Of a stretch of 33,488 bases of DNA, positions 8,401 through 33,488 are shown piece after piece; the first letter of the stretch is position 1; every line of letters begins with the position of its first letter. The position numbers were made by a program, and so were the translations under genes. Source of the DNA: Reclinomonas americana ATCC 50394 (taxonomy: Eukaryota). Below the pieces are notes generated by a model. That model saw nothing but the letters and a program-made list of their open reading frames with translations, did not search any database and was not told the DNA's origin. The DNA is taken from positions 1 through 33,488 of the forward strand of contig AFZH01020499.1 of NCBI GenBank assembly GCA_048213135.1, given 5' to 3'.

Positions 8401-11400
8401 TGATGGTGGGATCGTCTTGATTGGAGCTGGTAATCATGATGCTCGTCATGGCGAAAATGATGCTGGTGACCACAATAAGCACGATGGAGTAGGCGATAAT
8501 CAGCTTGGTCAGGCCCGAGTTGTTTGTCGACACGCTGCTAGCTGCTCGACCAGAGAGAGTCAATCACAAATACACTCCGTGTTCTGCTCGCTGAAGTAAA
8601 GTACGTACCAACACGTGCGCTTCCGAGACGACTGGCCGTATTGTCGTTGCCGTTCAGCATGCGCGAGCACTCGGCCAGCAAGTTGTTCAGATGGCGATAA
8701 ATGCGCGTGATGACGTACTTTGGAATGAGCTGGAAGAGCGACAATGTTCTGCACCGCAAAAAGGGTCTTGAGATTCGAGGAGACACTCACTGCCCCCAGT
8801 GCGCACAATGCTCACCGCTTTCGCTCGTTCACGGCCGACAAGAACGACGGAACGCTGAAAAGGCCGGCGAACAGGAGGATCGAGGCGCACGAGATTGCTG
8901 AGATGACAATCATGGCGCGGTGCGAGTATGACACGTTACTCCGCACCGCCTGCGTCACACGAAAAACAATGTCAGCACCCGGTATAAGAGAGCAATGTTG
9001 ATGTAACACTCAGCAACGCACCGCCAGACTGGCCACCACCACGCGACCAATGGCATCGGCAAACGCATCACCAATGTTGCCAAAGATGAAGCGATAGGCC
9101 TGCTGGCACACGGCGGCTGTCGGTGTCTTGGTGCACTGTGGTGGAAAACAGACACGAACATCAGCAATCGACATCACACAAACACACATCGAGTGCACTC
9201 AACTGTGGCGCTCGACAAGATGCCCAGTTGTGTGAGCATCTCGTGACTCGCATCCAGCAGCGGCAGGCTGGTGGTGCTTTCGCTCAGGCTGCCATTGGTG
9301 CCGACAATCAGCGTGCGATAGGTCGTCAGCGAAGTGGTCGCCTGGATGGTGATTGCCGACTGAGTGAACGTGGTGATTTGCTGCAGTAGCGATTGATACT
9401 GTGTCGCGAGGGTGAATCGGTGTCAGACATCTTCAGAGACGATAGCAGCAGACATGTGCCGAGCAAACCTGCGTGACCAATGTCGCTAAACCGCTGGCAA
9501 TGGTGGCATCGGTGGGTTTCGCAGCCGACAGTAGCAGTTGATTACCGAGCCGTTCCACTGTGACTGCGAAGTCTACCACCAACAGCAGACAGTCGGCGGG
9601 ATCCGCGCCCGTCTGCTTCGGCGACAGCATGTGCGACATGGAGTCCGACATTAGCATGCGCGACGTGACAAACATGACAATGATGATGGCAGCGGAGAGC
9701 AGCAACACCAGCCACTGTGTGCACCAAAGTGAGGACGAATGCAGTCGACCTTCTGTTCATCTGCGAAAGCACAACAACGCACCACTTGCATGCGCACACG
9801 CCACGCCACCGACGACTTCTTGTCATCCAAACGCCTCCGAATCTCGTGGTACTCCTGGTCGACGCCGCGGAATGTCACGCGAGTCATTTCCGTGGGAGCA
9901 CCGGCGTCGGATCCCGCACGGGTTCGTGCCTGCAGACGAGAGCAATCAGCGAGCTGCACACAACAAGGTCTTCGTATTGAACATACACACCATGGCGGGT
10001 GCCGCGCTCTGTACTGCCGCGCCCTCCAGGGCAGTACGGTCCAGCCGACGAGCAGGAGTAGGGCGTATGCGTGATGTCAAGGCCTCGTCGTAGTGTGACA
10101 TGTCGGGGGCGGCAAGCTGATTTGCCGCTTGCTCATGGACCATGAATGATGTCATTTCTGCGCGCGCGTGTGTGGTCAGTGAATGGTTCTTGGGTAGTTG
10201 ACGGGGGTGAGAGAAGTCGTCGGCAGAGTCACTAACCAATGTTTGTGCGCTGGTCCTGTTGCCTGTGGCTGCTCTGCGGCGTGCCATACACGGGAGGCGG
10301 AGTGAGTTGTCCACCAATGGCTCCGGCGCCATTCATGCCCGTGCTCGAGGGCGGGGCAATGGCAGGTGGACTATGCTCAACGACAAGTGAGTGACGATGT
10401 ACAAGGAAGAAGGCACAGCGCTTGCTAACGCACCCCGTCATCATGCGAGCCGTGTTGGGCGGCACTGGACTCGTGACACCGTTGCCGCCACCGCCGAGGC
10501 TATTCGGGAGGCTGCCGCCGGGATTGCCGGTAGTGGCCGCGAACCCGGATGCCGGCTGCTGGAATGCCGCCCACATGTCTTGTCCCATGGGTTGTTCCTC
10601 GAATTGGTCAGCGGCTTCGAGCAGGTCAGCGGCACGCAGTGGACTGTCGACGAATTAGTGAGTGAGCAAAAGGAAGGAAGGCGCGACTATGCACAGCACT
10701 CGTCATCACGAAACTCGTTATCAATGTCGTGGATCCAGCGAGCGTACGCGCGCAACAGGCTGGTGCTGTTGGGAAATTCGCGAAGCAGGCGCGCGTACAA
10801 CACAGCACCTTCCTCTTCGCCGCGAGCTGCACGCACAACGATGGAGTCTGTGAGAGGCGATATTCGAGCCAATACTGTTTCAACAATGACAACAAACCAA
10901 TGCTCCAGATGGTGGCCGCCGTGCTCGACAAGTCCGTGTCGGAGCGCATAAAGTTGTGCCAGAAATGACTCATGTGAGTCAACACATCCTGCCGCCGCAT
11001 CTCCAACTTGTGCAGTGCGCGCGTCAGGTGCTTGTTCTCTGCCCCAGGAGTGGTGCCTTGCACGTCGTCGACAATGAGCTGCATGATACGCAGCGTCATC
11101 ACCAAGTCCGGCATGTTGGCGTTCTTGCGCGACCGCAGCAACTGCAGTGGAGTAGGTAAGCTCGTTGGTATGAGGAAGGCGGTGGAGAGAATGAATCACA
11201 AACACAAACCTTGCACAACGTGGGAATAATCGCAAATGCCGATTGCTCGGGTGTGTTGAGCAGGTAGATGGCGTAGGCGAGACGCAAGGAGAGCGACTTG
11301 GGGAACTTTTTCTGTCCCGCCATGAACACCTCCTCGGCGAGTGACTTGTCCAAGGCCCCGAGTCGCACCGCTTGCTCCACCTCGTGAGGAGAGTCGCACG

Positions 11401-16500: not shown

Positions 16501-19500
16501 GTGCGGCTGTCGTGCGTCGGCGGTCCACTGCGCCCATTGGTCCGTGGAAGGCAGCGCCGGGCCTCAATGAGTCGGCAGGTCTCATTCGCCCGCTGCCTCG
16601 AGAGTCTCGCTCGGCCTCGTTGTCGGGGGCGGCGGTGGCAGCGACCGTGGCCATGGGACTCGGCTCGGCAAGGCGAGACTCGGTGCGCGCACATGCGCAG
16701 GGTGCATCGCACGCCCAGATGAATGCGAAAGCGAGTCCGCTCGGCTCTCCGACATCCTCGGCGCAGCAGGAGCAGCAGCGACTGCGCGAACTGCCACCAG
16801 TGCAGCTTCATAAGCCCTTCAATGCCGACTCCGCCTGGCGACCCAACGTGCCCGTACCGCCGCAGTCACGCAGAACTTCGGTGGCTTCTGCGGCGGCCCC
16901 GAGCTGCGCCGTCCCCGGAGCGGTGGACTTGGCGAAGGCTCTGCAAGACGCGGCCGACATGGAGGCGCTGGAGGAGTCCAACACCTCGTGGCTGTCGCAC
17001 CACTTGCAGCAGCTGCCGTCGATGGGTGCCAATGGTGTCGCCGTCAGCGATGACTTGGACTCGGACGACGACATGGCGGCGCGCGAGGTGGCCGGCCGCA
17101 TGTCGACTCCGCTGATGGCTGCTCCCAATGGCATACTGAGTCCGGTACAGGCGGCAATCTCAACAGCATCTTCGGCTGCCACCAGTGCAGCCACTTCGCA
17201 GTCTCCCAAGCTCACGGGCTTTGTGCGGCCGGCGTCGCATTACGGCCTGCTTGCCGGAAGTGCGAACGGTGCGGCGGACGACTTGAACGGCACCGACAGT
17301 TCCCTTCGTCGTCCGTCTGCGTCGATGGAGGCAGCGACTGCGGGTCTCGGCGTCGCCGCGCTTTCCGATGATGTGCCGACTGCCGAGCTTGTGCCGCGGG
17401 TGGTTGGTGCTCGGCGAGGAGGCAGGTGGTGGGGTGGCAGACACGCTGGTGGCGCCGGAAGGCGAACACAATCATCGGTACCTGCCGTAGAGTCGCTGGA
17501 CCGCGAGAGCCGACGTTCGAGTGTCGCTCAACCGCTGCCGTCACTGCGTCTCCCCGTGGGCGGAGACAGCGAGAGCGCGGCAGTCGGTGCCAGTGACGTC
17601 GCAGGCCGCCGTGTGTCGGCCAGTTACGCCGCCATGGCTCGAGCCAACGAGGACGCCATGTCGATCAGTGGTGGCGGTGGTGACATGGTGGGAGCACACC
17701 CGCTCATTGGCCGTCTGGTGCGCACCGGCAGCGGCGGTCGTCGTGTGACGGAGAACTTGGGTAGAGGGCTTGACGACAGCGATGCCAACAATGGTGGCGA
17801 CAGCGATGTGGAGGATGGCGAGTTTGTGCTTCGACAGAGCCGCGGAATGCGCCACAATCAGCAACGCAGCAGGTATCCGGCTCATGCGCGCTCGGCGACG
17901 ATGCCTGGTGTTCCGTCGTCACGTGACCTTGCTCTCGACTTTATGGACTCGCCGACTGGCAGGGGTGTCGGTGTTGGCGAAATGGGTGGCGCAGGAGTCG
18001 CTGCTGGTGGTGGTGCTGGTGGAGTCGGCGGCGGTGGGACGCCCGTCACATTTGGCAACGATACGCAGACCAGCGGCGGCGGCGGTGGCGGATTGCGCGG
18101 GCTGGCGCCGCCGGTAAGCATCGACCTGACACCCTCCACCGCCACTGCTATTCCGTTGTCGCCAAACGAGCAAGACGATGTGGACGATGATGGTCGTCAC
18201 GTTGCAGATCCCGAGGCCGAAGACACGCAGGTTTGTGGCTGCGCCGGCATAGTGAGTGGCCCGTGGTGCCTTCCTTTGCTCAATATTGTGTGCCATATCA
18301 GAATGCTGACATGCCACCACGGCTGCAAAGCAAAATGGCCGCGAAGCGTGAGCAGCTGCAGCTGATGACCATCAGATCGCGGCTGCAGTCGCGCAAGTCC
18401 ACTGCCGTGTTCCGGCTTACCACACAGGCGGTGAGTTGGACGGCGTGACACGTGCGGTGGACCACCAACTGATTTCGTTTTTGTGTCACACAGTGGGTCA
18501 TTGTTCTCGGATTTCTCGCGCTGGCACTGGCGCTCTTTGTGGTGAATCAAAGGGTCATTCAGCAGCAGACGGCGGGAACTGAGCTGCTGCGTTCGCCACC
18601 CGCGCCAGGCGGTGATCTGGCACCGTTTGCAGCCTGGGCGGCTTTCTTGGTGACAAATTCGCGAGCCGGTGCGTGTACTCTGTTTGTTCTGCGTTGCGTG
18701 TGCACGCTTCCTATTCCGCTCACACCTCATCATTCTACGTGTGTAGCTCTCGCCATCTCCGACATGTACACGGACTTGCTAGCCACCGCCACAATTCAAC
18801 CATCGGGCCTCTCTCAGTTTGCCACCACAGCCGCAGCACAGGTTTGTTCACTTTTCTTTTTTCTTACCAGCAACTCAATCTCTCACTTTCGGCGGCCCAA
18901 TGCAGGTGCAATCCGCGTATCGTTCCCTGCACGCGCTCAGTCTGTCAAGTGAGGCCACGGAAGCACTGGAAAGTACGGTATCCACTGTGGTTGCGCCTGC
19001 TGGCACCGCCACCAGCCCGTCGTACGTAAGGACAACGCAACAGCTGTCCATGCTGGAATTCGAGGTTGTGATGGCCACACAAACGGCGGCAACGGTGCGG
19101 GGGGAGCGTCGAAGCGTCAGCACTGTTGCTCTTCTAGATCTTGCTCATCTGTCCGTTTGTCATGCAGTGTCTGGCCACTGGCAGTGCCGGTGCACTGAGC
19201 GACCCGGGGTGCGATGCGGCCGCTCGTCGCGTTTTCTACAATGGCAACGAATCGCTGCAGGCGCAGTTGCACGAAGCCACCGACGAAATTGGCGACGTGA
19301 GTTGATGTGTTTGGCCAGGAACTGAACTTGTGGTCGTTAACACGTGCTGAGGAAATGCAGGCTCTTGTGACATCGAGTCGGTCGGCCTTTTTGTTCAAAT
19401 CATTGGCGGCGACCGGCTCCTCTCTGTTGGTACTCATTGGCATCACGCTGATCACCATTCCGTCATTCCGCAGTGCCATGCGTGAGCGACTCAAGTTTCG

Positions 19501-23120: not shown

Positions 23121-25826
23121 ATGAGTCTCTCCTCATACTCATCCATCTCCGACAGCAGCAGTGGCACACAATCAACCACCGTCTCCTCCATTCCCGCCAA
23201 CGCCATGGGCGCCAGTGCATACTCAGGTTTCCCTTCCTCTTCTCATCCTCCATTGTTTTTCGCGCGCGCTCTCACTCTCTGTGTTTCCCGCGCGCGCGCA
23301 AGACGCCACTGTGAACCTCTCCGATGCCACAGCACCTCCGCGTCACTCTTTCCTCTCAGGCGACTCGCCTCCATCGTACGCGCCTCTGGTCAATCCACTC
23401 ACCGGGCAAGTCATCAGTCCACTGACTGCGACCTCGGCCTCGTTCTCCACTCCTCCTCGGCCTTCCTCTCAACACCACCACCACCACCACCAGCAAAGAC
23501 CTTCAATGGACTCCACGAGTGATCACATGCTGAGCGAGGACGATGATGATGATGATGACGGCGAAGAGCAACAGCCTCCTGCGCAACTCGAGTACTCGAT
23601 TGACACATTGTCGCGAGTTGCGTCTCTTTCTTGTGTTGGTGAGTGGAATTATGTGTTAATGGGTGGATGTGGAGCAGGTGATCCCGGAGGAGTTCTCGTT
23701 TGATCAGCAGACGGCGCGGGAACAGCTGTTTTTGTTGCAGGAGAGGCGCATGGCGAGCTTGGAGGATATGGTGAGGGATCCGTCCAAGCTGGTGACGCCG
23801 CCGGAGGGGATGAGGGGGGAGAGAGTGGTGGTGAGTGGGGGAAGGGGGAGAAGGGGAAGGGGGAGGGGAAGGGGGAAAGGGAGTGGAGCTGCTGAAAGAC
23901 TGAGAGATAGATGCTCTGGGGGGTGAGTGCAGCAGCAGCAGAGGAGAAGGGGAGCAGCAGCAGAGCAGACAGGGAGGCTGTGTTGGATGAGGGGCGGAGG
24001 AATGACTGAGGAGAGGAAAGACTCTTGGGGAACAAAGAGAGACTCTTGAAGTCACGAGTGCAGCATAGGGGGACAGCGCCCAGTAAGGTTGCCATCGTGT
24101 TGACTTCACGCTGCCGCACAGCTATGGCGCGACTCAGATGCCGGTGCCTCGTCCAACGGCGAGGATCGAAGCGGCAGTGCTGGACGATCGGTGTCGCGGC
24201 AACGCGATGGCAGTGATTCAGGATCGGTGTGTGGCTGCCGATTGTTGTTTACTGTCGGCGACGACTGCAGTGCTGACGAGTATTTGTGTGCGTGCAGTTG
24301 TCATCGCGGAGCACTCTAGAGGCTGGCGTGCAGACAGACATTTCCGTGTCGCCGGTGGTGAGTCTGTCATTGTGAAACTCCACTGTTCCGCCGGCTGCTC
24401 TGACAATGTGCTCATTGCTGCAGGCGGTTGCTCCGCTGCCTCCCGCCGTCGGCTCTCCCTCTATGGCGTTCACACCGCCGGCCGATAATAGTCGTGCGCC
24501 GCCGTTCTCCGACCTGCCTAACTTGTCGCCCATTCGAAGGTGGGATGCGACTCTTGCATCGTGAATCGAGTGTGTCGCTGATCGTCTCTTGTTTATCGCC
24601 CGGGCAGCGACGGAAGCTCGCCAATTGTGCGTGTACGAACACCGATCTCATCCCCGTGGAATCGCCTGCCGCCTCGTAGTCCCGCACGATGTTGCGTACA
24701 AGAAGCAGTTGTGATGGCACTGCGCCGGCTCTTACGATGCATCTTCGTCACAGCTGCTTCTGTCTCGAAACAACTGCGGTTCCAGCTTCCCGACGATCAC
24801 TCACATACACCACGTTGCGTCCCCGCACCTCCCCACACTCTCCCCTCTGTGTGTGACCTGACTCGTGCGTGACTTGCAGCATCTCCAAATACGCCCTCGC
24901 CCGGACCAGCACTGGAGTACGGCGGCATGGACGATCGGTCACCTCCAAAGCCGTCGCTGAGCCCCGTGGGCGACCCTTTCGGTCTCTCGTCCATGCGTCA
25001 AGTGCAGCAACCGCAGCCGCCGCCGCCGTCACAGTCGCTCTCTGCTTCTGCTGCTCGTCAGTCCACCCTGTGTTCGTGGGACGTATCGTCTTTGCAGTCA
25101 ATGTCGGTGTCACACGTTCCGCAACCTGGTGTGGACTCGACTTCCATGCATCAGTCGCCTCCGCCACTGCCACCGCGACAGCAACAGCCGGCGCCCCCCG
25201 TACGCCAAACACAACCACCGCCACCGCATCATCATCATCATCATCATCACCAGCGTCGATCGAGTCGTGCCCCACCACCCGAAGCCGCGCATCTGTACCG
25301 CTCATTGTCGTCAGCAATGTCGGACGACTACACGGAGGAGCACTATGACGAGGTGATCATGCCTCTTCCCCTTTTCCTTCCCCTTCCCCCACCCCCTTCC
25401 CCCATGTCGCTCATCTGTCTCATGCAGGCCTCTCCCGCTCGAACCGGCTGGCCTCAATTCTCGGTCGATTCGTCGTCGTATGGCACGGCGGATTGGAGTC
25501 GTCGGTCGTCAACATCGGCCAACGGGACGTTCAACAATGGCGTTGCGCTGCAGTATGCCGCCTCTCCACAGAAGGCACATGCAGTGCCGCAGTCGGATTA
25601 CAGCTGGCACGAGCAGCAGCAGCGAAGGCACATGGCGGCGTTGGTGGCCGCGCAGCGCAAGGCTGAAGCTGCCATGGTGGCCCATCGCCGTCGGTTACTG
25701 CAAGCCGCCGAGGCTGCAGAGATTGCCAACGACCGCGATGCACTGACGCAACGGACGCCGCTCAGTCCGGCCGGGTACGCTTTCCTGCGCGACCGCTTGG
25801 TGAACAGTTTGAGGGGCAACTCATGA
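23121..25826 (+). CDS. Ser/Pro/His-rich low-complexity protein of unknown function; exons 23121-23226, 23303-23616, 23678-23770, 24122-24226, 24298-24357, 24424-24539, 24608-24690, 24754-24813, 24880-25826 (probably one more in-frame intron after 25352)
   Basis: Eight consecutive GT-AG junctions keep one open frame into the 24927..25826 ORF. No recognisable domain. An upstream exon is possible. Confidence 0.6.
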
Positions 25827-25932: not shown

Positions 25933-27658
25933 TTATTCGTGGTCGGCGGTCGAAACGCAGCCGGGTGAGGTCTGAATCATGCGCTTGCAGCACGACCACT
26001 GTGCATGAGAGATGGTGAGTAGGCGACAGCACAAGAGCGCACTGGAAGCAAGGAATACGACGCACTCGCTGCAGGGGAGGGAGTGAGTTGCAACGACAAA
26101 TGCATGAGAATGCAGTTTGGAAAAAAACGCAACATACTGCAGTCGGCATCCAACGAGACGGAACGCAAGAGGGGAAAGGGAAGTGAGTTAATGACCGAGG
26201 AACGCGGGCAAGCAACAGACGCACATTCTGCGATGAGGGCGAGCGATGAGTGGAAAGCGCAGATAAGGAAAGGATGAATGCAAGCGTGCACGATACCTTC
26301 CATTCGCCCGTGTGTCGCACGCACGCTGGATTGGAACGTTCCTGGCCACAGCGCGAGCACTACACGTCGCACACGCATCGCGATGTCAGCATGATACACC
26401 ATGTGTGCGAGATGGCCAGCGAGCGACAAACCGTGCCCGTCGCCGCGCTGCCTCCTGCTGCTGCCGACGATGCTGCAGATGATGACGAGGACGATGTTGC
26501 CACAGCGGTCACGGTCGGGGGTGCCACTGGCGGGAATGGCTGGTGCGGAGTCAAGAGGGGGGCGGGACTCACGGCCGGTCGTCCCTGATGTGCACACAAA
26601 CAAGCGCAGAATGTCAACCGCATGTGGAAAAGGAAAACAGTCGCACTAGTCTCTTTTGGCACACTCACCAACAACAGTCTCTCCAGCTGATCGGCGGCGC
26701 CGGTCGGCGGCTCAGCCACCTTTTCGGGGTTGAGAGTGACGGTCAATTGGCTGTCGTCGAGAGTGAGGATCATCGGAGCCTGCAGCACTCCATGAGCGAC
26801 CCATGAGTGCACGATGTTGACGATGGCAGACGCAACTTCGGCCTCCAAATCAGGCTGCACGCAGATCGGTCGGTCGCCAAGTCGGCCCTGGAATCGCGGC
26901 ACCGACAGCACGCGGCAAATGCTGTGGGATAGTCAGCACTAGGTCTGGGTTGCCCTCTTTCTCCTCACTCCACGCAACTCGGCGACGACGCGATGCACAG
27001 TCGGATACAAAATGTCGCCGAGGTGAGGCACGAGAGAGGCCGGCGACAGTGTGGCAAATGACACCGTGTCGACGACCAGCTGGCCACCAATGCCGGCCGC
27101 CTGCATCTCTTGCCGTGCACGCACCAGACTGGACACGTGAGCGGCCAGCGACGGACGCGCCAGCACCAAATGCTCCTTGTCGCCCTGAATCAGCTGGCTG
27201 GCCGGTCCGCGACCAATGTCGTCGCGCAGACTGTTAATGGCGTCGGCCTGCATGATGGAGAGGAATGAGTGGAGAGGCGGGGGGAGGTGAGAAAAGGGCA
27301 AGTGGGCGCACCCATTGTTGCGATTCGGCGGCGGTTCGACCTGCGGGGAACAAGAGAGCGCGGGTTGGTGAAAGAGGGGGGGAGGAGAGGGGACACACAC
27401 ACACACCATGCACGTAGTAGGTGCGATCGCCAGTGACCAGGTGCAGCACAAAGGCGCACCCCGGCAGAGTGTCGGACACCTGCGGTCCGTCGACTTGCAC
27501 GAGGTCGGTGACTGGGATGCTTCGGCGGGGTTTCGACTGGGGAGAGATGGGGAAGGGTTGGATGAGTGAAGGGGAAAGAAGGGAGAGGAGGAGGAGGAGG
27601 AGGAGAAGGAGGAGGAGGAGGAAAGGAGGAGGAGGAGGAGAAGAAGAAGAAGAAGAAG

Positions 27659-27693
<35 letters not shown>

Positions 27694-28312
27694 GGAGGAG
27701 GAGGAGGAGGAGGAGAGAGAGAGGAGGAGGAGAGGAGGAGGAGGAGGAGTAAGATGATGATGAAGAAGAATAAGGAGAAGAAGAAGAAGAAGAAGAAAAG
27801 AAGAAGAGGAAGAAGCAGACAAAGAGTGCAAGGAGGAGAAGAGAAACAACACTGAGAGGGAGAAGGAGGAGGGGAACGGGGAGAAGCAGTGGACATCAAA
27901 GACAGAGGGCGGACAAGGGCAGCATCTGAGGACTCAACATCCGACTCGCTCTTGAAGTACGACAGATGCGTCGCAGTCAGCACAAAGAAGCGCTCTTTCC
28001 ACGAGTGAACCACGCGACCTGTGTGAGCGAGAGGGAGAGTGAGAAGAAATAAGGGAGAAATGCAATAATTAGTCACTGTGAGTGAGTGAGTGAGTGAGTG
28101 AGTGAGTGGGTGCGTGTGTGAGGGAAGTGAGAGCGTGGCCGAGTGAGTGAGGGAAGGGAGACGAGGAGTGAGTTTGTGTGCGTGAGTGAATGAGCGAGTG
28201 AATGTGAGTGTGAATCACTTATTGAAGCACTGTGTTCCATACCTCGTTTGGTGAGGTTTCCACTCTTGATGGGCTCTTGTTTGCCCTTGAGCGCGCTTCC
28301 CTGTGAGCCCAT
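25933..28312 (-). CDS. PH-domain protein with possible N-myristoylation and a C-terminal Btk/CHORD-like zinc finger; exons 28312-28243, 28018-27939, 27536-27407, 27340-27312, 27247-26979, 26921-26669, 26584-26432, 26359-26297, 26227-26225, 26136-26134, 26068-26066, 25998-25933
   Basis: The N-terminus is MGSQGS (MGxxxS). PH signature IKSGNLTKRG|RVVHSWKERFFVL...LSYFKSESD|SKPRRSIPV...RTYYVHG|RTAAESQQW|ADAI. The C-terminus reads CSRC...CVRHTGEWK|N|Y|R|WSCCKRMIQTSPGCVSTADHE*. Confidence 0.85.
27537..27938. repeat. Intron filled with triplet microsatellites (AGG)n, (AAG)n, (AAC)n
   Basis: Directly visible, e.g. the (caa)n run at 27661-27693. It lies between PH exons 2 and 3. Confidence 0.9.
28076..28215. 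repeat. (GTGA)n tetranucleotide repeat in PH-gene intron 1
   Basis: gtgagtgagtga... run at 28078-28108, with degenerate copies to about 28215. Confidence 0.85.
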
Positions 28313-30429: not shown

Positions 30430-30855
30430 CACCAACTCCATTGTTGTTGAATGAATGTTTTGTGCTTTCCTTCGGTCTCCTGTCCTCTGACAGGCGCTCT
30501 TGAACCAGTACCGCAGCGTGAACTTCCGTTTGTGACCGACCGTACAATGCGACTGGCAGTCCGCTGGCGACGGTGACATCTAGTGCATGGTAATCATCAT
30601 GCAGCAGCTGTGTTGCCGTATTCAACCAACTTTTTCACCCTTGCATCCATGACCCTTGATCTCGGCCAATGGGGAGGTTCGAGCTGCTCAACAACCCCCG
30701 CTCTGCACTTCCTGCAAAAGGGGCTGTGGCTTCTCTCTTCCATCTCACAATGCAGCATGTTGAATGAGATTGGTGTCCAACTGTAAACCTTTTCTCCTTC
30801 ACGTTCATTTTTTCTTGATCCCGCCCGCACCATCAGCGGCTCTTCTGCGCTCCTC

Positions 30856-32919
30856 TCACTCGTTGTTGGTGTTGGGTGAGTATGTTGGGGAAGATGGGGA
30901 GTAGGCCGGACTACGAAGAGCAATTCGATGAGCGACACGAAGCGAGAAGGAAGGGGGAGAAGAGTGCGTGCAAACCTCGACGGTGAGTACGCCGGGCTCG
31001 ACGGGCTGTAGCGAGGTGACGATGGCGAGTAGGCTGGACTCGACGGACTGTAGCGCGGCGATGACGGCCTGTGGAGAAGAGTTAGTCGACTGCGATAAGC
31101 GACGCGCGAATGCAATTTGTGTGAGTGCACGCAACGAGTATTGCGGACTCGACGGCGAGTATTGCGGGCTGCAAGGGAAAAGAGGCGTGTTAGCAACAAC
31201 CGAACACATGCCGTTCTCAGATACGGAGAAGAAGTCACTGCAAGATGAAGAGAGACAAAGCCACCCGCCCCTCTATTTCCCTCCCCACGTACTCACCTCG
31301 ACGGCGAGTACTGTGGTGACGCCGGCGAGTACTGCGGCGACGCTGGCGAGTACTGCGGTGAGGCTGGCGAGTACTGCGGCGAGGCCGGTGAATACTGGGG
31401 CGACGCCGGCGAGTATTGCGGAGACGAGGGTCCGTGGACCGGCGACGCGGGGGAATACTGAGGCGAGGCCGGACTGCGACCAATCACCATCGTAAGAGTG
31501 TGAGAGAGGGTTGATTTGAACAGGGTAAAGCAGCGCTTCAAACCTGTACTGTGGACTGGCCGGCGAGTACCGCGGCGACGACGGCGAGTAGCGCGGTGAT
31601 GCGGCACCACCGCCAGAGTGATACGGCGAGTACGCAGGACTGCCTGGCATGTAGCCCGGCGACGACGGCGCACTGCACAGAGAGTGAGTTGAGTGGATTC
31701 ACGAAAAAACAACCAGAATCACAGTCACGCACTGATTCGGTGACGACATGTACGGGCTGGAGGCTCCGGCTCCGTAGGGGCTCTGTGGGGCCGGCGAGAA
31801 CATGGGAGCGTACGGCGAACCGGCGCCGGGCGTGAACATGACATTGTACGGCGTGCCGCCCGGCGTCTCGGAGCCAATGTACGGAGTCACACCGCCCGGC
31901 GAGCGACCCGGCGTGCCCGGCGACATGGGGTAGTCGTACACATTCGAGCCCGACTCGCGCAGCATCATCTCCTCCGGCGGCAGCTCACCCTCGATGGCGT
32001 GGCGCATCTTGTCGAGGTCGAGCAGCAATTCGAAGGCACCCGTGCCTGCACGACAACAAAAATGTCAATTACCATGTCCCCATTTTCGCCCATTCCTTCA
32101 TCCTCTGCACTCACCAATCGGAGCCGTCTTGCCCAGCATGACATTGGCCGACACACCCTTCAGCAAATCCACCTCGGCATACGCGGCGGCCTTCATGAGA
32201 ATTTCCACACTCTCCTCGAATGTGGCCTTCATGAGGGGGCCAACGTTGCGCCGGTTGATTCCGTGACGCGTAATGGGCATGTAGCGGCCGGAGCTGGTCA
32301 TCGTGTCGCACAGCACGGCCAAGTGGCGGTAGTTGACGTAGAGACCGTAGTTGCTGAGCACAGAGCGAATCTCATTCAGCAGCGAACGGCGCGCCGCCTC
32401 AATGCCCAGCACCGTAAACATTTGCACAATGTCGTTGCAAATGGTGCGCTTGTGATCCACCATGCGGTGGCTCATGACCTTGAGCATGTTGACGCCCTCC
32501 GTGTCCAGCACGAACTCCTTGTACTTTTGCTTGACGCCCTTGTCGTCAAACACCTCGCGGTCGGCCTTGCGCATAAACACCTTGCGAATGCCGTCAACGC
32601 CCTTGAGGTACAGGTTGTGGAGCAGGCGCGTTTCGATGCGCTTCAGCATCTTCAGAGTCGGGTCGCCCATCGAGCTCTCCATCTCATCCATGTCGGCACC
32701 GGCGCCCTTCTCCGCCGCACCCGTGTCGTTGATACGGATGCGGAGCACCTGATGGTCGTCGGCGCCCGGGTTCCTCGGGTACACAATGTTCAGCGCACTG
32801 CCCCATTCGTTGTTGATGCGCGTCGCCACCAAATCAATGTCCATGCCGCGGCCGTACAGCGTTTGGCCCTTGATGACCATGCGCAGCACCCATGGAGACA
32901 AGTTGGCCATTGATTCGTC
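30856..32919 (-). CDS. RPB1: RNA polymerase II largest subunit, 3' part including the CTD; exons 32919-32115, 32045-31733, 31672-31544, 31473-31297, 31168-31136, 31068-30976, 30910-30856
   Basis: Conserved motifs [57 protein letters not shown], followed by YSPxSPx heptads. Stop TGA at 30856. Confidence 0.97.
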
Positions 32920-33335
32920 CTGGGTGGGGGGAGGAGAGGGGTTGGGGAAAGGGAGAGTGAGAGGGGGAGGGTGGGGAAAGGGAGAAAGGGGGAAGGTGGA
33001 GGGCGGGGAAAGGGAGAGTGAGGGGGGGGAGGGTGGGAGAAGAGAGAGAGGGAATGAGGGAGAAAGAGAGAGGGAAAGAGGGAGAGAGAGAGCGAGAGAG
33101 AGGGAAAGGGAGAGTGAGGGAGAGAGAGAGAGAGTAAGGGCAGAGAGAGAGGGGTAGAGAAGTAGTGAAATGGAGAAAGAGGTCAGAGAGAGCGCAGAGA
33201 AGACGAAAAGCAGAGGAGAAAGGCACGAATGTGAGAATGGGGACGGGAGGACAGTGCATGCACGGAGGAGTGAAAGCAGAAAATATTGAGAGCACATGCA
33301 CACAGAGCAAGACTGACGAGAGAAAAACAGAGGAG

Positions 33336-33393
<58 letters not shown>

Positions 33394-33402
33394 AGAAGAA
33401 GA
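32920..33402. repeat. Purine-rich / (GA)n expanded intron of RPB1
   Basis: Long G/A tracts and a (GA)n run at about 33342-33390, upstream of the acceptor at 32920. Confidence 0.8.
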
Positions 33403-33488
33403 ACGGACGTACGGTAGTAGAGTCGACTAGCGACGACGGGAGGTAGGCGGACGAAGTACGACGTAGTACGTATAGTTACGAGACACTA

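Follow-up and report, generated by a model that had tools for sequence, protein, structure and literature searches.

The 33,488-nucleotide (nt) stretch of Reclinomonas americana ATCC 50394 DNA analyzed here (contig AFZH01020499.1, referred to below as the window) carries on its minus strand a gene predicted to encode a protein of about 373 residues, with an N-terminal PH-like domain, a middle region with no recognized family, and, at the C terminus, a zinc module about 45 residues long. The module is encoded by exon 8 (E8, 26297 to 26359, 63 nt) and the last exon (E9, 25933 to 25998, 66 nt), which are separated by 298 nt. E8, CSRCGQERSNPACVRHTGEWK, contains the first C3H set, C-x2-C-x8-C-x2-H, ends in HTGEWK, and is followed from position 26296 by the donor gtatcg. 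E9, WSCCKRMIQTSPGCVSTADHE and then a TAA stop codon (25935 to 25933), starts with WSCCKR directly after gcacag and contains the second C3H set, CC-x9-C-x5-H. The gap between the two exons divides exactly into four units that begin with GT and end with AG, split by the three codons AAT, TAT, and CGA. From E8 to E9, these are unit iA (26228 to 26296, 69 nt, gtatcg...cgcag), AAT (Asn, 26225 to 26227), unit iB (26137 to 26224, 88 nt, gtgcgt...tgcag), TAT (Tyr, 26134 to 26136), unit iC (26069 to 26133, 65 nt, gttgcg...tgcag), CGA (Arg, 26066 to 26068), and unit iD (25999 to 26065, 67 nt, gtgcgt...cacag). The three candidate microexons are placed by their flanking GT-AG units and by the path enumeration described below. 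A preliminary description of this DNA had already proposed E8, three microexons, four introns, and E9 at this site, and all of its coordinates and letters were correct when they were derived again.

The interval contains few alternative sites of the required kind. There are six AG dinucleotides within the 298 nt, of which three are the proposed microexon acceptors and one is the final acceptor, and units iA, iB, and iC have no internal AG. The pattern AG-NNN-GT is found four times, at the three microexons and at one site overlapping the third. Branch-like motifs lie close to the 3' end in units iA (CTCAT, 19 nt), iC (CTCAC, 15 nt), and iD (CTCAC, 17 nt); in iB, the weakest of the four, the nearest such motif is a CTCAC 47 nt away. 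Every combination of inclusion and skipping of the three codons preserves the reading frame.

A reference set of introns was compiled from the same window. Our own gene finder predicted 82 introns, 62 of them shorter than 100 nt. From these, we retained introns whose strand agreed with that of a clearly coding region and whose pyrimidine share was 0.30 or more; three were then dropped by hand and two were added, giving 51. The two added introns come from the hand model of the gene described here, and none comes from the tested interval. The curated introns are 55 to 87 nt long. Their commonest donors are GTGAGT (9 introns), GTTTGT (7), and GTTGCG, GTGCGT, GTGCGC, and GTGTGT (4 each), their three commonest acceptor classes are TGCAG (18), CGCAG (10), and CACAG (5), and a branch-like YTNAY motif lies 8 to 44 nt before the 3' end in 44 of the 51. 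The internal donors of the interval, GTGCGT (twice) and GTTGCG, are enriched 6.5- and 10.4-fold, respectively, over all GT sites, and the four unit acceptors (CGCAG, TGCAG, TGCAG, and CACAG) all fall within the three commonest curated classes. The earlier statement that the intron sizes are normal for this window holds for the 69-, 65-, and 67-nt units, whereas iB, at 88 nt, is marginal. In our own gene models, the donors of the window form distinct classes (GTGAGT, GTTTGT, GTGCGY, GTTGCG, and GTGTGT) with no single GTAAGT-like consensus, GTTGCG resembles GTGCG shifted by one T, and introns carry CTCAY or CTGAC branch-like motifs 14 to 29 nt from the 3' end.

The architecture of the interval is very unlikely to be accidental. 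When the interval was shuffled 20,000 times with dinucleotide counts preserved, not one product could be tiled by GT..YAG units of 53 to 90 nt separated by exons of either 3 nt or 1 to 15 nt. The number of tilings expected by chance, from first-order models built on either the interval or the interiors of introns, was 1e-7 to 1.6e-7 when donors were restricted to the hexamers observed in this organism and 5e-5 to 9e-5 when any GT was accepted. The preliminary description had suggested a genome-wide scan for yag-NNN-gt patterns inside over-long predicted introns; in a scan of the window for chains of such units, covering both strands (2 x 33,488 nt), the only chain of at least three units was the present interval. 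Of the four two-unit chains found elsewhere, three (plus strand, 18348 to 18493; minus strand, 10836 to 10687 and 8034 to 7877) were rejected because one "intron" in each is an open, coding-looking frame, and the fourth (plus strand, 9232 to 9386) lies opposite a minus-strand gene. An origin of the four units as tandem duplicates or introners was also rejected: they share 56% column identity with only 10 invariant columns, the best blastn hits covered 17 to 30 nt with E values of 0.003 or worse, and the units are copies neither of each other nor of other introns.

All splicing paths from the His codon of the first C3H set to the CC codons of the second were then enumerated, requiring canonical sites, an open reading frame free of stops, at most five introns, each 40 nt or longer, and no exon above 60 nt. 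Paths were scored with donor, acceptor, and length models only, with no prior against microexons. There were 129 in-frame paths with free ends and 59 with E8 and E9 fixed, and in both sets the path that includes all three codons (N-Y-R) ranked at the top. Its score was 11.3 bits, compared with 7.0 for N-R, 6.4 for a path with a 10-residue insert, 4.2 for Y-R, 3.8 for R, 1.8 for N, and -1.4 for a single intron. A His-CC loop of exactly 10 residues results from only 4 of the 129 paths, among them the top-scoring N-Y-R path. The best path by splice signals and the ligand spacing of the BTK motif, considered next, are two independent lines of evidence that agree.

Together, E8 and E9 provide eight potential zinc ligands arranged as C-x2-C-x8-C-x2-H-(x10 or x7)-CC-x9-C-x5-H, that is, two C3H sets. 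When all three codons are included, the arrangement around the loop is H-x10-CC-x9-C; without them, the loop between His and CC is 7 residues long. In BTK the zinc ligands are His143, Cys154, Cys155, and Cys165 (PMC3836457), and the claim of the preliminary description that this spacing needs all three codons is borne out, H-x10-CC-x9-C being the same spacing. The Pfam profile points in the same direction. E9 alone matched Pfam BTK (PF00779) with an E value of 0.0015 and 18.8 bits, below the gathering cut-off of 24, its residues 1 to 17 aligning with positions 12 to 28 of the 30-position profile; E8 alone gave no match. Because the Cys residues of E9 fall on profile positions 14, 15, and 25, the His should occupy position 3, which is nine residues ahead of the opening W of E9, and it reaches that position only if three residues are inserted. 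Zinc binding by the module is what we infer from this ligand pattern.

The name "Btk-type zinc finger" given to this module earlier fits only in part: the ligand spacing with N-Y-R included agrees with it, but the two C3H sets are like those of a compact CHORD domain, and the module lies about 250 residues past the PH-like exons. In Tec kinases, the Btk motif directly follows the PH domain. Here exons 5 to 7, about 225 residues, intervene, so that the module and the PH-like exons are not adjacent; compared with the Btk motif, the module also has an extra C-x2-C...C in front and C-x5-H behind. The CHORD domain consists of two C3H motifs that bind one zinc each (PMC12129344). Two C3H sets are thus common to both, and A-C-x-x-H-x-G and W-S-C-C-K-R also occur in a solved CHORD chain. 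All spacers are shorter in the present module, however, with 10 or 7 residues between His and CC compared with 14 in the solved chain, and the module is single, whereas CHORD occurs in tandem. Neither E8 nor E9 matched Pfam CHORD (PF04968) at E values up to 10, and a search of PDB sequences with E8 and E9 likewise returned nothing at E values up to 10. A 7-residue loop would be shorter than those of all comparators (10, 14, and about 20 residues, the last in metagenome proteins described below). Since loop length varies among relatives, the spacing argument suggests the N-Y-R reading but does not prove it, and we consider its strength moderate.

Metagenome contigs were searched with a degenerate DNA pattern for W-S-C-C-K-R-x6-G-C, which returned 62 loci. 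By our reading, 32 of these represent one and the same stretch, out of frame, in an unrelated conserved gene, and another 13 also match by chance. The remaining 17 carried a real WSCC...GC...H motif. The first half of the present gene was found in none of the 17, and they are therefore not orthologues. Five of the 17 were checked against Pfam; three exceeded the BTK cut-off (34.6, 33.1, and 28.6 bits), with an alignment that starts at profile position 11 or 12 and stops at 26. The CC pair of these three proteins follows the His at a distance of about 20 residues, and one of the three aligns weakly to the solved CHORD chain, in which the His-CC distance is 14. A recurrent motif among the metagenome loci, C-x-F-H-x-G-x-Y followed after about 14 residues by G-W-S-C-C-K-S-K-D-x-x-A-P-G-C-x5-H, appears similar to a CHORD domain with a longer loop. 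It was found at L004, L011, L012, L016, L018, L029, L035, L051, and L061; also at L003, L013, L014, L052, and L057; and at L019 and L040. L004, L012, and L035, the members of this group that were checked against Pfam, pass the BTK cut-off only over the CC..GC core. Stop-laden sequence just upstream in some copies suggests introns and hence a eukaryotic origin.

Other searches for relatives were negative. Exon 5 matched nothing among longer proteins and nothing in the metagenome contigs. A 40-residue frame ending in E9 had no match among longer proteins, one candidate with shared words being returned. The sole match of a 30-residue frame ending in E9 among 1.84 billion representatives (P0001) was an ankyrin-repeat protein without WSCC and was judged spurious. 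Exons 5 to 7 (about 225 residues) matched no Pfam family, and no related protein was found for them. Elsewhere in the window, the minus strand (30597 to 33488) encodes the C-terminal portion of RPB1, a subunit of RNA polymerase II, whose tail has non-canonical heptads of the form YSPASPQ at about 31299 to 31481. Among the proteins of the collection, a jakobid RPB1 matches it best, with only 54% identity, and this low value indicates that the collection contains no close relative of this organism. Andalucia godoyi has few introns (PMC7050145) and is thereby set apart from the source of the window.

The model of the whole gene was assembled by hand, guided by our own crude gene finder. It has 12 exons and 373 codons with no internal stop, and GT-AG boundaries are present at all 11 introns. 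Exon 1 (28243 to 28312, 70 nt) opens with an ATG, and its start, MGSQGS..., resembles that of an N-myristoylated protein. Exon 2 (27939 to 28018, 80 nt) begins the PH-like domain; its 26 residues alone matched Pfam PH with an E value of 1.6e-4 and 22.6 bits, under the cut-off of 25.1, and gave weak matches to PH_20 and PH_8 as well. Exon 3 (27407 to 27536, 130 nt), which follows a 402-nt intron rich in trinucleotide repeats, continues the PH-like domain and gave no Pfam match by itself. It is followed by exon 4 (27312 to 27340, 29 nt) and by exon 5 (26979 to 27247, 269 nt), which encodes the middle region and whose 3' end was chosen between two solutions. The junction between exons 5 and 6 (26922 to 26978) has two in-frame options, a 57-nt intron with donor GTTGCG, which was adopted, and a 114-nt intron with donor GTGAGG (at 26968); the two differ by 22 residues of protein. 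Exon 6 (26669 to 26921, 253 nt) ends at a GTGAGT donor, and exon 7 (26432 to 26584, 153 nt), with donor GTTTGT, encodes a linker rich in Pro, Ser, and Ala before E8. The expectation that gene predictors would stumble at this locus came true with our own, which truncated the gene at 26569. That early end hinges on an odd donor, GTTGGT, located 4 nt upstream of a perfect GTGAGT.

Trinucleotide and (GTGA)n arrays account for the length of the gene's two long introns (27537 to 27938, 402 nt, and 28019 to 28242, 224 nt). Within each there is one YAG that has a good pyrimidine tract, 87 nt from the donor in the 402-nt intron and 167 nt from it in the 224-nt intron, and both of these sites must be bypassed if the PH-like domain is to be intact. 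The end of a convergent gene on the plus strand (24873 to 25826) and the stop codon of the gene described here are about 105 nt apart, which means that the two 3' untranslated regions must be very short or overlap. At the other end of the window, two adjacent long frames on the minus strand (334 to 2634) contain near-identical WD40 arrays (GHT..V.SVAVTPDG...VSGS.D.TVRVWS) and similar C-terminal tails, and they look like a tandem gene pair.

The reading that we favor, with a probability of about 0.7, is that the 298 nt consist of four short spliceosomal introns and that AAT, TAT, and CGA are all spliced in as single-codon exons. Several observations weigh against it. The intron set came from a crude gene finder and hand curation and not from transcripts. 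Unit iB is atypical, being 1 nt longer than the longest curated intron, with 47 nt between its branch-like motif and the 3' end. The E8 donor GTATCG matches 0 of the 51 curated donors, and it is required under every reading. No orthologue or paralogue was found with exon 5, with the frames ending in E9, or in the metagenome searches. The PH domain and the module, a CHORD/Btk-like finger with two C3H sets, are separated by about 250 residues, and the His-CC distance varies among related modules (14 for the solved CHORD chain, about 20 for the metagenome proteins). Other observations would suit the removal of the whole interval in a single step as one 298-nt intron, in which case E8 would join E9 directly and in frame, the internal AG-NNN-GT sites would be unused decoys, and the loop would have 7 residues, a length to be seen against the variable loops of this domain class. 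The prior for three consecutive 3-nt exons is very low. Neither the exon-side bases nor the codon choice looks selected: the last exon base is G at 41 of the 51 curated donors but T, T, and A at the three microexons, and both AAT and TAT are used less often than their synonymous codons (4 versus 22 and 4 versus 15). Position-weight matrices gave the six internal sites unremarkable scores, in the lower quarter of the curated true sites, which intron-internal decoys often equaled, the TAT donor being matched or beaten by 103 of 210 decoys. The matrices, an earlier version included, could not separate the internal sites from decoys, and the case instead depends on the tiling statistic, on how long the units are, and on the classes to which their donors and acceptors belong. 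The bypassed YAGs in the 224- and 402-nt introns of the same gene, at 167 and 87 nt, further indicate that unused internal sites exist in this organism. Given those two introns, one of 298 nt would not as such be abnormal for this gene; they are swollen by microsatellites, however, whereas the 298-nt interval contains no tandem repeat or microsatellite. Single-step removal would also mean that a good 3' splice site at the preferred distance of 69 nt is ignored, that a tiling by four units of typical length and site class arose by chance against the expectations and shuffles given above, and that the path with the best signals restores the BTK spacing by coincidence. We therefore consider a single intron unlikely.

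Partial or alternative use of the three codons would place one or two of them in the main mRNA (for example N-R, with TAT skipped) or would yield a mixture of isoforms with zero to three residues inserted. This would be tolerated by the reading frame in every combination, the next-best paths (N-R, Y-R, R, and N) are of this type, and iB, as the longest unit with the most distant branch-like motif, would be a plausible place for skipping. Known animal 3-nt exons are alternative (PMC4674806, PMC8042270). The full path nevertheless scores 4 bits above the best partial one, partial use needs introns of 156 to 228 nt in an organism whose curated introns are 55 to 87 nt long, and the BTK spacing is obtained only with the full set of three codons; we regard partial use as the main outcome to be quite improbable. 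A decayed or mis-modelled 3' end, with E9 outside the mRNA or the gene a pseudogene and the pattern functionless, would be consistent with the early end of the automatic model and with the finding of homologues only for the PH-like exon and E9. The 373 stop-free codons and the canonical signals at 11 of 11 introns argue against decay, as do the two complete C3H sets formed by E8 and E9 and the match of E9 to Pfam BTK, and the early end itself depends on the odd GTTGGT donor. This explanation seems to us highly improbable.

If all three codons are indeed included, N-Y-R would lie in the loop that connects the first set's His to the CC of the second C3H set, giving the 10-residue loop of the BTK spacing. 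The tight clustering of introns at 55 to 87 nt suggests that introns in this organism are recognized across the intron, and each unit of 65 to 88 nt would then be picked up by itself. A 3-nt exon would leave no room for 3' and 5' splice-site complexes side by side, for which reason the units are probably removed one after another; each microexon would first be joined to its larger neighbor, and its other side would be used afterwards. The earlier proposals of ordered splicing and of tuning the loop one residue at a time are speculation. A more elaborate version, in which the order of removal is obligatory and amounts to recursive splicing that leaves one codon behind per step, in which the cluster arose by repeated intron gain in one zinc-finger hairpin loop, and in which combinatorial use might yield up to 8 in-frame isoforms with loops of 7 to 10 residues, is doubtful.

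Four introns within 9 nt of coding sequence would, if true, be the densest intron packing known to us. Confirmation by RNA would make the locus a natural test case for minimal exon size and for intron packing under intron definition, in which the limits on exon size are bypassed three times in succession, and a simple substrate for studying splicing order. Since gene finders, ours included, miss or truncate such genes, short motifs and zinc fingers may be under-annotated in intron-rich protists. Should the interval prove to be one long intron instead, it would caution that a chain of splice signals may look perfect and yet be silent. Our literature search, which did not cover supplementary files in which such cases might be listed, found no report of three consecutive single-codon exons.

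The nearest known systems share parts of this arrangement. Arabidopsis APC11 has a 1-nt constitutive exon (PMC4674806), and 3-nt exons occur in mouse Ncam and Drosophila troponin T (PMC8042270). Like the microexons proposed here, these are exons of 1 to 3 nt with canonical GT-AG flanks that keep the frame and are missed by annotation. They are single exons proven by cDNA, however, and the 3-nt ones are alternative, whereas the exons proposed here would be three in a row, most likely constitutive, and are read from the genomic sequence. Runs of microexons are also known. Plant Peptidase M1 genes contain adjacent 5-nt and 12-nt microexons attributed to stepwise intron gain in a conserved coding stretch (PMC8831610, PMC11096116), and human RPS24 is reported to contain three consecutive microexons of 3, 18, and 22 bp (PMC12207440, PMC11162997). 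Two or three microexons thus follow one another there as they would here, but none of these runs is made up of single codons alone, and in the present gene four introns would split 9 nt of coding sequence. In cytohesin-1, a 3-nt microexon is reported to lie within the PH domain and to be alternative and regulated (PMC6314551). There, as would be the case here, one codon alters a loop by one residue in a lipid-binding signaling protein; the cytohesin-1 exon is an alternative exon of an animal PH domain, whereas the loop in question here belongs to a zinc module. Finally, at ratchet points AG and GT are juxtaposed, and nothing is left in the mRNA. Recursive splicing at such points is reported for long introns of Drosophila (PMC6110457). 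The removal of a long interval in successive steps is common to those introns and to the scheme proposed here, but at ratchet points nothing remains, whereas each of the three sites in the present gene has three bases between its AG and its GT.

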